DNA of 63,727 nt, the filler included, from Octopus bimaculoides (taxonomy: Eukaryota), in assembly GCF_001194135.2 (NCBI RefSeq). It is 6 parts of 5 records of this genome, joined end to end, with 100 filler letters (N's around TTAATTAATTAA, not from the genome) between each part and the next. Parts side by side here need not be neighbours in the genome. Positions count along the whole stretch, not along the records: positions 1 to 18,186 come from NC_068989.1; positions 18,287 to 42,804 come from NC_068998.1; positions 42,905 to 55,201 come from NC_068986.1; positions 55,302 to 58,451 come from NC_068989.1; 2 more parts are not named here. One strand, given 5' to 3'. Position numbers and translations under genes: made by a program. Positions within the stretch are counted from its first letter, which is position 1, and every line of letters starts with the position of its first letter. Below are positions 5,590 to 58,340 of the stretch, piece by piece. A model generated the notes under the pieces. That model worked only from the letters and a program-made list of their open reading frames with translations, made no database searches and was not told the DNA's origin.

Positions 5590-5745
5590 TACCTAAGGAA
5601 TGAGAACCCAGAGTTGGGTTCAAAATCCTACCAGGACACCTGATGAAGGCTGGAGAGTAAATCAACCGAAACGTTGTGGTAACAACAAACAAGTTGAGGA
5701 CAAATATCTGTCTAATGTAAATAATGTAAATATTGTACATTACTG
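5590..5745 (+). mobile_element. Penelope-type terminal repeat (pLTR) relic
   Basis: Contains the CTGATGA...GAAAC motif typical of Penelope termini, followed by an AATGTAAAT tail. Confidence 0.6.
5636..5680 (+). ncRNA. Minimal type I hammerhead ribozyme motif
   Basis: CAC | CUGAUGA (5640-5646) | A | GGCUGG..UCAACC | GAAAC (5668-5672) | GUU | GUG; helix III is the ACGU palindrome. Confidence 0.7.
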
Positions 5746-6849
5746 TATTATTTCCCTAGCTTTTTTTTTTTTTTTCAGATTTAAACTCCCCTTGAAGGAC
5801 TCCTGTTTTGTTATAGTAATAATAATCTGAATTAATTGAAGCTGTAGCGAGACAGAAAAGAGTTATTTTGTCGTGATGTCATAGCACAGTCGTGCTATGG
5901 TCATTTCATCCAATTAGAACTGGCTGCGGAAGGATACATGTAGCAACTTTCACCCAGCAGTATATGCGCCTCTTTCAAATAGCTAAATTAGTTGCAGCGT
6001 TGACGGTCCTAGGAGCAACATCACCCTTTCTGATATGCGACTGTTACAGTGTACGCTACCAACGCCGCGCAACTCATTTCATGTATATCTGTTTTCATTC
6101 TGTGGCACATAAACCACCCATGCGAATTTCTTCATGTCTCGCGACACCATTTGTTTATCATTCACACACAAACAAAAAAATAATTCTTATTGCTTCTTGC
6201 GAGTACTTGTTACCCTTCAAAAATAGATTTTAATGTTATACATACCTTGCTTTCTGACTTTCATTACACACGCTGTCACAGAACACTCACATGAAATTAG
6301 TGACGACCACCATCATTACAAAAAGCTTTTCGAAATTTCTGTGTAACTAATACCTAAGTATATTTAACTTTCAGAACGCACCTCTGAAATATTGTCCCCT
6401 CAGTCCTGTTACTGATATTCATAATCATTGTTACTACCTTTCGTGTGTATGAGTGTGTGTGTGTGTGTGTGTAAAATGTCTTCTATGATAATGGAGTCAA
6501 TTATGCGTCACTAATGAGAGCCAATAAGATCGGAAGAGGTCCGTTGCTCTTTCACCAGTTTGCTTTAAAGTTAAAACCCATTTCTAACTGTATTGTCTTT
6601 ATTCCAAAAGATTTGAATTACGTGGTATTATTGGACTTACCTTCCCTGCTTGATGATCTTTGACTTTAAACACTCAGGAGAGAGTTTTGGCCTCTAATTG
6701 CAAGGACAATCTCAGTTAATAGGGCTTTAACGCATAATATTATATGAGACTTTGCAAGTTACCAATTATTTCAGCTATCACTCACAATGTCAGCCAGCAA
6801 ATCATTTCACTGGCTGGTACTGAGAGCACATATGACTACAGTAATAGAT

Positions 6850-7050
6850 TATCCTTGTTACTCGGGGTTGACTGGTCTTATACGTCTACCACCCAAGTAC
6901 ATATGACCCACTCATCTCTCCGGTCCTTTTCTGTCATATGTCCATTCCCGCTCCAAAGCACTAGTCATTATTCTCATTCCTCCCTTACCAGAACAACGAC
7001 CCTCTGGAATCTCGTCCAGAAGAGAGTGTAAGAGACTTTCAAGCTATGTG
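6850..7050 (+). mobile_element. CR1-group LINE 3' end fragment
   Basis: STSHYSHSSLTRTTTLWN resembles the terminal HYxxSFxPRTxxLWN motif; same family as 4855-5330. Confidence 0.55.
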
Positions 7051-7107
7051 CTCTATATTCTAATACAATATATATATAGACTAATACACACACACAAACA
7101 CAAACAC

Positions 7108-7168
<61 letters not shown>

Positions 7169-8159
7169 NNNNNNNNNNNNNNNNNNNNNNNNNNNNNNNN
7201 NNNNNNNNNNNNNNNNNNNNNNNNNNNNNNNNNNNNNNNNNNNNNNNNNNNNNNNNNNNNNNNNNNNNNNNNNNNNNNNNNNNNNNNNNNNNNNNNNNNN
7301 NNNNNNNNNNNNNNNNNNNNNNNNNNNNNNNNNNNNNNNNNNNNNNNNNNNNNNNNNNNNNNNNNNNNNNNNNNNNNNNNNNNNNNNNNNNNNNNNNNNN
7401 NNNNNNNNNNNNNNNNNNNNNNNNNNNNNNNNNNNNNNNNNNNNNNNNNNNNNNNNNNNNNNNNNNNNNNNNNNNNNNNNNNNNNNNNNNNNNNNNNNNN
7501 NNNNNNNNNNNNNNNNNNNNNNNNNNNNNNNNNNNNNNNNNNNNNNNNNNNNNNNNNNNNNNNNNNNNNNNNNNNNNNNNNNNNNNNNNNGTGTGTGTGT
7601 GTGTGCGTGTGTGTGTGTGTGTGTGTGTGCGTGTGTGTGTGCCGTTTTCCACCATTGACTGATGGCATTTATTAAACTAAGGCGACTATTACTGATAAAT
7701 TGGTCCGATTGTATTTCATGTTTGGAGTTAACTATGCAATAATTGTTTGTATGTTGTCATTTTGGCCTAATCTCTGCCTTATTTCCTTCGTTTATTATTT
7801 CAAAAGGTTACATAAGGTTATTGTACTTTTTAGAAGATCATTTTCATCCTTTGTTGATGGTCTGATAGCTTTAACTGAATGTTTGTGGTTATAGTCTCAT
7901 ACCATTCCTGCGAGAGACTACATTATATTTCATTCTTGAAAGTGTGATCGTGCTTCATAACTAATATGATTTTCATTATCAACATTTTCTACAGTTACCA
8001 TTGATTATCTAAGCGGTTTTTGAAACTTTCTGGTTAAGAAATTCCCGTTGTTTTGGGATTCGACCCCAAGATATTACAGGGAAGTAAACAAACTAGCACT
8101 AAGACATACACACATACATTCATACATACACACGCAGACATACACAAAAAATACATACA

Positions 8160-8424
8160 TGCGTCTCGTGTTTCCGAGCTTGCAATCCAGTTCATTTTCT
8201 TGGGTGTTTAAACCGCATATGGCTTCGCAACCCAAGGGTTGCATGAAACATACGGGGACATTGTGGACAAGGGATAGAAGGGGTTGGTTTGGGAAGGAGA
8301 AGGCGCTGCTTTCTCTCCCGTCTCTTGAGTTCAGCTCTTGCGACTCGGGCTTTCTCGAAGTCCGCTGAACCCGTTTTGATGGTGTGTCTCCAGAGGGGTC
8401 TGTTTGCCGAGATATCCTCCCAGT
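8160..8424 (-). mobile_element. RTE-clade LINE 3' end with C2H2 finger
   Basis: WEDISANRPLWRHTIKTGSADFEKARVARAELKRRERK, then after a frameshift PSIPCPQCPRMFHATLGLRSHMRFKH*; truncated by a gap. Confidence 0.85.
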
Positions 8425-55584: not shown

Positions 55585-55849
55585 AGCTACACATTGCACA
55601 TATTTGGAGTGGATCAATTGTCGAAGGATTCCCAAGATCGTTGTTCAAAGTCAGAAATGTCTCCGGCCACAAATTATTGTCCCCGTGGTTAAGATTTAAC
55701 AGCTGGTCAGAAGCGTCCACTGAACTAAGCAGGAAACAATTCGCGTGTAATACAACATTTTCTCTAAAATTTCTATTATAAAAAGCAGATTAGATTTGGA
55801 GGTGCTTTCATTGCTTTGGTGCATCGGAGTAGAAGACGAGCAAAAATCT

Positions 55850-56560
55850 AAGTTTCAAGTTTTAGTGGGATTTGCTCCTAACAATAATATAAAACTATAT
55901 TTTGCTGCTTTACACCCTATTATTCGTTCGGCTTCCCAAAAGACTTATAGCCACCGGGTTCCAAGTCTAAGCTCATATCAAAGAAATCCGTCCTCTTCAG
56001 GTTGGTTTCTGTTGTGACTTTGAAGCCAAAGGAATGAATTCATGGTGTTGGTGAGGTCTTTCCCAAACCTATTGAATGTGAGGTCGTTTGCCCCTCTCGA
56101 TATTGCTGAGTATTGTCAATGTAGCGGCCAAAGCAAGTAGAAAGGAATTTTTTCTAAGTAAATTCTGGACGAAAAAAATCCACACAGGATGTTCATGTAA
56201 AGGTCACATCACATATTCCTTTAACGGCCACAATAACATGGAAACAGTTTTATATGAGGTAACATCAAATGTATGTGAGGGTGACAGATAGTCCTTTCAG
56301 GACTTTATTCAATAAACATTAGACCTGCTTCAGTATCGCGGAGAGAACGCCACATTCATAGGCAGGTACGTATAGTCATTAAAGTTAAACGCCATGGAGT
56401 ACAGCATAAAGCAGAAAATCTTAGAAAAGAGCAAGGTCTATTTTCATAGTAACAGAAAATGCAGGTTGTGTTTAGCTGAGAAAAACACCCAGACATCTTT
56501 CAGTATCCAGATATGTACCTAAATTGCAAAAGAGAGATTTTAGCCCTTGCTCATATGAAA
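55850..56560 (+). mobile_element. Degenerate Penelope RT-end plus GIY-YIG fragment
   Basis: SCKGHITYSFNGHNNMETVLYEVT (cf. CNC...CPLxGxC...VYxA) and YSIKQKILEKSKVY...RKCRLCLAEK. Confidence 0.65.
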
Positions 56561-57131
56561 GAAGGTATATCTTACCGTACCTTTAAGCCCCATCATGGCT
56601 ATCACCTCTTCTCCACCTTCTATTCTTTCACTACCATATCCTATGAACCTGATAAAAGTGTTTAGTCAAAGCACAAACAAACATAGGCAGATATGCGTTC
56701 TAACATGGGTTTATGCTTTTGGGCATCCGCTCAGCACCCATGTCCCCCTAAACTTCTATATATATGATACCCTCACAAGAATTCCAGCTCATGACCCCTA
56801 CATACATTTTCAGGAAACTCTTGTTGACTTACATCTCAGAGAGCTTTGGGTTAAGAGACATAACTCTCGATATAATCAGTTCGTTTCGTCTTTTTACGCC
56901 TCACCCAGAAACCGGATGTTACTTTTCATCTCCAATAAAGGTGAGCAGTCGCCATTTTTTTCATGCCTGGTAGCTCTGACGAAATGTCTGGTTAAATAGA
57001 CATTACTTGTTGGTGATGTCCTGTACTTAATGTGCATTTCTTATTTTTTTTTTATAATCGAACGCCACGCAACCCTGTTCACAGTAAGTTATAAGTTATA
57101 TGTGTGTATATATATATATCTAATTATATAA

Positions 57132-57210
<79 letters not shown>

Positions 57211-57218
57211 GCATATAT

Positions 57219-58340
57219 GGCTACAAGACATCACCAACTGTATAAACGACATGAAATATGAAAACAAACGAGTTAAATAAACAAACAACGAGAGAAAAAA
57301 TGGAAAGCAGGACAAGCAAACACAGAGAACGACCCTTCATCAGTTGTCGGCTGTCTGTCTACTCATTTCAAGCATTCAACGACAATATGAATCTTCAAAG
57401 ACAGTTTCTCCCATAAATTCTAAAATAAAATTTAGGCTTTATGGAGGGTCAAAGTTGGGAACAAAAACAGGACAGTGGAGACATACAAGGAAACCGAACG
57501 AAAACAAACATGGAGGGTCATTAGACCAGAACGAAAGGAAAATAGTGAACGTTGGAAGAAATATTTTCTTTGAAAAGAGAAACGATAGAAGAGAGAGAAA
57601 GAAAACGCCCAGTCCTTTGAACGTCCGTGCAGGAAAAGAAAGATGGTCACGTGAGGAAAAGAAAGATGAACGATGGTCACGTGTGAGCAACGAGAGAGAG
57701 AAAAAGAGAAAGAACGAGAGAGACAAATAGAAAACGGTGAAAAAGGGAGGGGAGAAAAAGGGAATTAAAGAAGGATGGAGGAAGAAAACAGTATAGAGTA
57801 GAGTCGCATCAAAAAGTTTAAGATAAATGTATGAATTTCTTTGTAAACATAATGCGAATTACTGCCTAAATTCACCCTTCTTAAAAACTTCTCCCAAAAA
57901 CGACTACACTCACCTATCCACCATTGGACGAAGTAACACAACACAGATCCTAGAATACACCGCGGGAAGTTTCTAGCTTATTTCCCCTTCCTATATCTAA
58001 TTCAGCTTAATAAGCTGTACTTCTCTCACAGCTTCATATTTGCTCCTATTCTTTTTTTGCAATTTTAAATAATGACAAATACATTGTACCTATTGTTAAC
58101 TGTTTATTATATGTGTTAGCTCTCATAACCATTTAGACCCTCTGAAGAAGACTAGAGGCACACTCATCATCCAAACTTTATCTGCCAATCCCTACAGAAC
58201 ATCCAAGAGATGGAGATAACATGGAAGATTTTGTTGCCTCTTAGCAGAAACGCCCGTAAGGAACCGATCTTAAACTCTTTCCTGTAATATTAATTAATAC
58301 ATTTGTGTGTAACACATAGTTACTACATGTGTATGTACTC
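57219..58340. mobile_element. Penelope-associated non-coding repeat region
   Basis: Contains a minus-strand CTGATGAAGGG at 57333-57343 and the hammerhead motif at 58139; family assignment is inferred. Confidence 0.4.
58139..58261 (+). ncRNA. Type I hammerhead motif with ~100-nt helix II hairpin
   Basis: CCU|CUGAAGA|three nested helices|GAAAC|GCCC|GUA|AGG. Confidence 0.65.

Follow-up and report, generated by a model that had tools for sequence, protein, structure and literature searches.

Penelope-like elements (PLEs) carry minimal type I hammerhead motifs in their terminal repeats, with the consensus CUGANGAH, G...C, GAAAN, a palindrome and NUH (Cervera and de la Pena 2014, PMC4209133, Fig. 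S3). Most genomic minimal hammerheads are single and probably belong to truncated PLEs. Their activity in vitro is low, and they may depend on partners or helpers. Lone motifs showed no cleavage, and dimers showed little (PMC4209133). PLEs have expanded in Octopus, and the available part of a 2026 repeat paper on O. vulgaris makes no mention of ribozymes (PMC13282606). Here we describe a 63,727-nucleotide stretch of the Octopus bimaculoides genome (GCF_001194135.2; "the window"), in which an original prediction had placed six type I hammerhead-like motifs. All six were found at the predicted places, with one architecture. With a probability of roughly 0.7, we read them as the decaying 3' ends of PLEs from five families whose parents would have cut their own RNA at NUH, three of the families having a longer helix II.

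The motifs, named here by the positions at which they were first reported, are listed in Table 1. The CUGANGA and GAAA boxes and the NUH triplet are intact in four of them (5636, 24266, 42534 and 58139). The cores of 9515 (UUGUUGA) and 10225 (CUGUGGA) are broken, both by A6U and the former additionally by C3U. The helix III palindrome is perfect in four of the six, with one mismatch each in the 42534 and 58139 copies. Between A9 and position 10.1, an A is followed by a G-C pair in 5636, 9515 and 24266 and by G.U in 10225. An extra A had been claimed for five motifs, with 42534 as the one in which it can pair; it does form an A-U pair there, but in 58139 a second A at 11.1 lies opposite it, which makes an A.A opposition and not a one-sided bulge, and a G-C pair follows. 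Holding the six copies in a fold with helix I formed and the core open takes 1.2-5.9 kcal/mol, so the hammerhead fold is reachable but not preferred.

Table 1. Hammerhead motifs, associated elements and dispersed repeats in the window (coordinates of the window)
Feature	Coordinates	Strand	Details	C3	Helix I pairs	Helix II domain (nt)	Helix III	Cleavage triplet
Motif 5636, minimal type I hammerhead	5637..5678	+	intact core 5640-5646; extra A; helix II of 5 bp with one mismatch; H17 = 5675	5640+	3	21	ACGU	GUU
Motif 9515, minimal, damaged core (C3U, A6U)	9515..9550	-	4-bp helix II and tetraloop; 10225 family	9546-	4	13	ACGU	GUA
Motif 10225, minimal, damaged core (A6U)	10225..10260	-	4-bp helix II; 9515 family	10256-	4	13	ACGU	GUU
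Motif 24266, long arm	24266..24370	+	intact core; helix II domain with open base; perfect 8-nt palindrome; H17 = 24361; (TA)n about 57 nt past site	24275+	8/9	68	ACACGUGU	GUA
Motif 42534, long arm	42532..42621	+	intact core; 17-bp helix II; 8-nt helix III with one mismatch; H17 = 42615; microsatellite about 58 nt past site	42538+	6	59	ACAUAUAU	AUA
Motif 58139, long arm	58139..58261	+	intact core; helix II hairpin; 8-nt helix III, perfect palindrome in family majority; H17 = 58258	58142+	3	98	ACGCCCGU	GUA
Multi-copy element containing motif 58139	57830..58432	+	summed contig depth peaks around motif; terminates at (TA)n; left edge adjoins another repeat
Repeat copy containing motif 9515	9440..9574	-	extends into (CTAT)n/(TA)n tract
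Repeat copy containing motif 10225	10150..10282	-	83% identity to 9440-9574
Broken C-terminal GIY-YIG endonuclease of a Hydra-clade-like PLE	56154..56489	+	profile E 6.7e-21, profile built from matches to the same fragment
Seventh, decayed hammerhead remnant, outside the original prediction	56976..57015	+	core and 6-bp helix II retained; GAAA lost
Short repeat family 1	12568-12733, 50770-50935, 3361-3517
Short repeat family 2	12797-12966, 16443-16592, 40466-40633
Short repeat family 3	10900-11240, 62698-62846
Short repeat family 4	14322-14613, 17921-18186, 51898-52165

The six motifs match the published PLE consensus, including the extra A and the palindromic helix III, which bears out the predicted kinship with Penelope-like hammerheads; the extra A, which had been likened to one tolerated in a viroid hammerhead, is rather part of that consensus (CUGANGAH; PMC4209133). 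Motifs here and there have in common the type I order, the CUGANGA core, the unpaired nucleotide between 9 and 10.1, the palindromic helix III, a short helix I, single copies in scattered places, numerous unrelated families in one genome and a predicted action as dimers. The three short motifs are ordinary members of this group. The published descriptor allows a stem II of 3-7 bp and a loop 2 of 3-10 nt, whereas three motifs here have a helix II of 59-98 nt, and by eye none of the 56 representatives listed there, which include no cephalopod, has a helix II domain longer than about 25 nt. Re-coded, that descriptor matches none of the six motifs: three fail on length, two on core damage and one on a stem mismatch. 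Helix III palindromes of up to 10 nt are known from Aedes PLE motifs (PMC4209133). Hydra-clade PLE hammerheads (Craig et al. 2021, PMC8557442) are similar in their octopus host, their insertion at (TA)n, the place of the motif near the 3' end and the tolerance of mismatches at 10.1-11.1. However, those listed have a short helix II and a helix III mostly of 9 or 10 nt, while the palindromes here are of 4 or 8 nt, and only the decayed seventh motif resembles Hydra-1_oBim.

Because both core boxes are short words separated by a flexible gap, one might suppose that such motifs are chance assemblies in repetitive DNA. The window is AT-rich and microsatellite-rich and contains 6,476 Ns, and bare CUGANGA heptamers are not enriched in it (24 observed, 22.6 +/- 5.0 expected), which is the chance level. 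Joined boxes behave differently. A strict descriptor (intact core, helix I of at least 2 bp, helix II of at least 2/5) found 4 sites, compared with a mean of 0.03 and a maximum of 1 in 100 local dinucleotide shuffles of the window; in the shuffle comparison that the original prediction had proposed, motif density is thus far lower in shuffled sequence. A looser descriptor (up to two core mismatches) gave 6 sites against a mean of 0.35 and a maximum of 3, two of them (43927- and 59595-) outside the predicted list. A wide scan gave 7 sites against a mean of 1.04 and a maximum of 5 in 200 shuffles, that is, about one false site per window, and three of its seven are probably chance; we treated the extra wide-scan sites 46505+, 54304+, 29120-, 43927- and 59595- as such. 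The class with a 40-110 nt helix II and an 8-nt helix III, defined post hoc, has 3 sites against a mean of 0.025 and a maximum of 1.

The Rfam scan, also proposed in the prediction, speaks for chance in that it finds nothing: there is no match at gathering score across the window, no hammerhead family up to E 10 at 5560-5760, and none among the matches listed (150 of 274 weak matches). A scan of viral and metagenome contigs for the long-arm pattern served as a further null and says little about animals, since the collection is likely mostly microbial. The viral contigs gave 59 loci, with 50 distinct matches scored, 4 palindromic and none complete; the metagenome contigs gave at least 120 loci, with 118 distinct among the matches listed, 28 palindromic (about 25% are expected by chance) and one marginal. 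Only 1 of the 168 distinct matches listed has a palindrome together with a helix I and a helix II of at least 3 each. In addition, the majority letters of the 58139 family, described below, restore its fold. For 5636, 42534, 58139 and the 9515/10225 pair, the evidence already goes most of the way towards refuting chance, and for the set as a whole chance is scarcely credible.

The repeats carrying 9515 and 10225 are 83% identical over about 135 nt, and of nine flanks compared they are the only two to align above z 3.5. The six motifs thus represent five unrelated repeat families rather than six, 9515 and 10225 being copies of one family. At about one motif per 9.5 kb of called bases, this agrees with the predicted several unrelated families at about one per 10 kb. 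A microsatellite lies 57-174 nt downstream on the same strand in four of the six, and none was found for 5636 and 10225. Two long-arm elements have the word UGCUCC near their 3' ends (24395-24400 and 42644-42653), and the same word stands just ahead of helix I in the 9515/10225 family (10260-10268 and 9550-9556, both on the minus strand); this could reflect an end signal common to PLEs, or coincidence. In the stretch that separates 9515 from 10225, at 9850-9915 (-), GAAACGUC lies 26 nt upstream of CUGAUGA in a hairpin, an order opposite to type I that recalls the 'HHR_half_core' annotation for Naiad PLEs, one from Octopus included. As a type II (permuted) hammerhead, 9876(-) was rejected: it folds without a proper helix I.

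One hammerhead remnant in the window does lie beside a PLE reading frame. The seventh motif begins about 490 nt downstream of the endonuclease remnant and, by eye, resembles the Hydra-1_oBim hammerhead (PMC8557442, File S2). A HMMER search with the endonuclease remnant against 1.84 billion proteins returned 13 relatives, the best an Octopus vulgaris hypothetical protein (E 2.5e-11, 42%), which alone among nine looked up carries a name; a word-based protein search with the same remnant gave no matches and a protein atlas search no result. The alignment of the relatives has a CxCX5C linker and CxxC and CxH motifs, which are marks of Hydra-clade PLEs (PMC8557442), and the remnant itself retains CxC and CxxC. 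The remnant fits the Hydra clade; Neptune, the identity first considered, was rejected on this cysteine pattern. At least one hammerhead remnant in the window is thus tied to a PLE open reading frame. The label 'non-autonomous' that the original prediction gave to the families is not supported, because lone motifs are typically 5'-truncated PLE ends and the seventh motif trails a PLE endonuclease remnant. On the strand opposite to the endonuclease, at 55900-56050 (-), a peptide resembles by eye the thumb of a PLE reverse transcriptase (RT), an arrangement known from PLE insertions that are inverted. Another Hydra-like endonuclease remnant, weaker than the first, lies at 39368-39614 (-) (profile E 3.8e-5), with no hammerhead core seen downstream.

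The three long-arm motifs have in common an 8-nt helix III and an A at position 17, a combination that not all three short ones have. Across their families, helices I and III remain paired with differing letters. Compared with shuffles, the helix II hairpin is significant in 42534 (z -5.67) and in 58139 (z -3.20). Other copies of the 58139 family were compared by aligning to 57210-58430, at 80% likeness, the contigs of two sets (organisms A and B) and the reads of two raw RNA runs, of which about 6% was covered. This interval divides into a separate, very abundant repeat (57210-57827) and a less abundant family that carries the motif (57830-58430), whose summed contig depth of about 1,000-16,000 in contig set X1, where the single contigs listed have 47-77, is not a copy number. 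The family is multi-copy in both organisms, as many as 69 (A) and 47 (B) contigs covering a single position.

At several sites the family majority differs from the window copy in a way that tightens the fold. The base of helix II gains two pairs, one through 58151 A>C (69 and 47 contigs) and one through 58243 A>G, and its apex is closed by 58202-58204. In helix III the palindrome becomes perfect with 58253 C>G (93% and 96% of depth), and 58265 C>T closes a pair in the outer part of helix I. Because majority letters restore the palindrome and tighten the hairpin in two organisms, the long arm and the palindrome are traits of the family in both, the window copy having decayed; the arm is then inherited structure and not a local accident. 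The majority letters at 58202-58204 also create a second CUGAAGA heptamer (58202-58208, +) in the apex of the 98-nt helix II, which may be chance or an alternative core. In the adjoining repeat at 57210-57827 (-), summed contig depth climbs to about 850,000 and RNA reads match in either orientation; the repeat has a CUGAUGA half core at 57343, and its loose end resembles by eye the Hydra-like element end at 57060-57090. As a type II hammerhead, 57343(-) was rejected, the family majority having no NUH.

Several points weigh against reading the six motifs as PLE ends with an inherited long arm in three families. Pfam named a PLE family in none of 30 flank frames of the six motifs (there was one sub-threshold DUF match), the upstream flank of 42534, mostly an N gap, lying outside that scan; and no RT or endonuclease remnant was found beside any of the six. 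Because no coding remnant adjoins them, the six are tied to PLEs by the form of the motifs and by their surroundings; Pfam failed to name relatives of the true endonuclease remnant as well. The 24266 helix II (z +0.75, open base) is not a significant hairpin and is no more structured than shuffles; the helix I and palindrome of this motif are the best among the six. The comparison of other copies covers, among the three long-arm families, that of 58139 only. Ten differences fall in 58132-58273 among the 40 of 346 that were listed. Of these ten majority differences, eight strengthen a pair and none disrupts any; the mean is 1.1 under a random-change null that is lenient, because the pairing registers were chosen after the differences had been seen. 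The change at 58187 is equivocal, merely shifting a bulge, and 58202-58204 are probably a single event, which leaves about five independent restorations. Finally, restoration shows ancestry and not selection for cleavage.

The same observations bear on whether the long helix II is a passenger, that is, an inverted repeat or insertion that entered loop 2 of a minimal hammerhead and spread with the element, cleavage being kept or not. The three long arms have no sequence in common, the 42534 stem is AT-rich and partly microsatellite-like, and the 24266 arm is as unstructured as shuffles, all of which such an origin would explain. It would not explain why the long-arm motifs all combine the 8-nt helix III with A17, nor why the 58139 arm belongs to the family majority in organisms A and B, where pairs are regained at its base and at its apex. 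We consider a passenger origin rather unlikely; it can coexist with the reading of the motifs as decaying PLE ends.

A different origin would place the motifs in truly non-autonomous families of retrozyme type, whose transcripts are cut and circularised and then put back into the genome by PLE enzymes; the window would show lone monomers of them. Animal non-LTR retrozymes likewise are non-coding repeats akin to the terminal repeats of PLEs, and their type I hammerheads have a helix III that is weak or palindromic (PMC7229834; bioRxiv 10.64898/2026.07.22.740005). They derive from those terminal repeats, are often monomeric (bioRxiv 10.64898/2026.07.22.740005), and would be in keeping with the roughly 600 nt of the 58139 element without a visible coding remnant. 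Retrozymes are defined, however, by hammerhead-bearing units of 150-450 bp that repeat in tandem, and by plentiful monomer RNA in linear and circular form. Neither tandem units nor abundant circular RNA is seen here. No tandem unit surrounds any of the six motifs within the window, and the 9515 and 10225 copies are separated by other sequence. In the two ordinary RNA-seq runs, depth over the 58139 motif is low (2-9 per read orientation, in both orientations), reads at least 99% alike over the whole 57210-58430 stretch number 5 and 1, and there are no piled read ends over the motif, although such libraries can lose circles. None of the joints listed (15 of 260) falls over the motif, and no RNA data set was listed as containing 57210-58430. 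We regard a retrozyme origin as improbable.

The original prediction also raised the possibility that intronic copies cut nascent host RNA when two compatible ones pair, and so act as host regulators. Copies of the 58139 family are present at a low level in the RNA runs, and 9515 and 10225 lie 710 nt apart on one strand with the same helices I and III, as such a mechanism would want. This is the sole compatible same-strand pair, however, and both of its cores are damaged by A6U; changes at A6 give low activity (PMC3088659). A protein search with a 100-aa frame across the 10225 motif, for A6U as a family trait, gave no match, literature searches for A6U hammerheads found no description, and no viral or prokaryote contig contained a 22-base word taken from the family. 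Pairing between the long-arm palindromes of different families is weak, at best -2.7 kcal/mol compared with -10.3 kcal/mol for a perfect 8-nt helix III self pair between two copies, and the 58139 copy has drifted from the family pairing. No host exon was found by Pfam in 150 of 166 stop-free, non-repetitive frames of at least 55 aa, a search that short exons would escape; the only domains in those frames are of transposons (mariner, Helitron-like PIF1 and hAT). The proposed cutting of host RNA calls for a host transcript and for two compatible copies that are intact; with no host exon found and a single damaged pair, we judge it very improbable.

The decaying-PLE reading suggests the following course. 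The parent element would have its motif in a terminal repeat near the 3' end, as published PLE work implies. Two copies in a tandem transcript would pair through their palindromes, build helix III and release a unit-length RNA, which the element's RT-endonuclease would copy into microsatellites. Truncation at the 5' side would leave short ends that still hold the motif and go on to accumulate mutations. Since helix II is not part of the hammerhead core, its lengthening need not stop catalysis; for this reason the long arm would likely be tolerated. The genomic copies here are probably inactive or nearly so, with no effect on host RNA shown. That cleavage happens only between paired copies, as predicted, is insecure for the long class: its 8-nt helix III can alternatively fold as two pairs and a tetraloop, a form that permitted 22% monomer cleavage in an axolotl motif (PMC7229834).

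The remainder of the window holds other repeats. At least four dispersed short families, with multiple copies each, are probably SINEs (Table 1); ARAGORN found no tRNA gene. A broken PIF1 helicase at 28495-29648 (-) is probably a Helitron remnant, a hAT dimerisation domain at 33135-33317 belongs to a stretch (33135-35003, -) whose upstream frames look transposase-like by eye, and a mariner helix-turn-helix remnant lies at 18473-18691 (-). An imperfect inverted repeat of about 270 nt at 40763-41031 is MITE-like, and 53574-54350 is a long, degenerate, low-complexity (GAT)n tract. Two features probably arose in assembly: one tail occurs on both sides of a 10-N gap (24395-24445 and 24465-24515), and the same 12-base AT word stands twice between paired runs of N (42849-42860 and 58496-58507).

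What is new here is the three motifs that combine an 8-nt helix III with a helix II of 59-98 nt. The longest precedent we found for the arm is the spike-moss element PLE-X1_sMoe, with a 9-bp stem II and a 35-nt loop (53 nt); it is a plant element, flagged as deviating and without the 8-nt palindrome (PMC8557442). In RNA viruses, a 'long' helix II has 6-8 bp (PMC13725137). The mammalian Clec2 discontinuous hammerhead likewise tolerates a very long insertion in one arm, but it is of type III, with the insertion (150-1500 nt) in helix I, and lies in a host 3' UTR (PMC6155905). Our literature searches found no octopus hammerheads beyond Hydra-1_oBim and no 60-100 nt helix II in animal PLE hammerheads, although two surveys with other or more relaxed descriptors could lower the novelty. 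Lunse 2017 reportedly used other or more relaxed hammerhead descriptors. The suggestion that the long-helix-II class may be undescribed thus keeps its ground among animal PLE hammerheads, as far as these searches reach.

A stronger version, which we hold only tentatively and think somewhat doubtful, is that these motifs belong to a distinct, undescribed class of type I hammerhead in octopus PLEs, with an 8-nt palindromic helix III and a 60-100 nt helix II hairpin, kept in several unrelated families, catalytically active in the parents, perhaps even as a monomer, and with a functional arm. If so, the arm would, for example, stabilise the core instead of loop-loop contacts, or be a signal for the element's reverse transcriptase, and censuses of animal ribozymes would have overlooked the class, because published descriptors limit loop 2 to 10 nt. 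If the long arm is a passenger, the finding shrinks to more members of a known abundant motif. As the re-coded published descriptor finds none of the six motifs in the window, ribozyme counts for cephalopods, and perhaps for other animals, may fall well short. The series of helix II from 4 bp to 98 nt in a single genome would offer a test of whether the arm rescues activity, whether a dimer is needed or whether the arm is a separate signal, and the role of hammerheads in PLEs is the ground on which such a natural series would bear.

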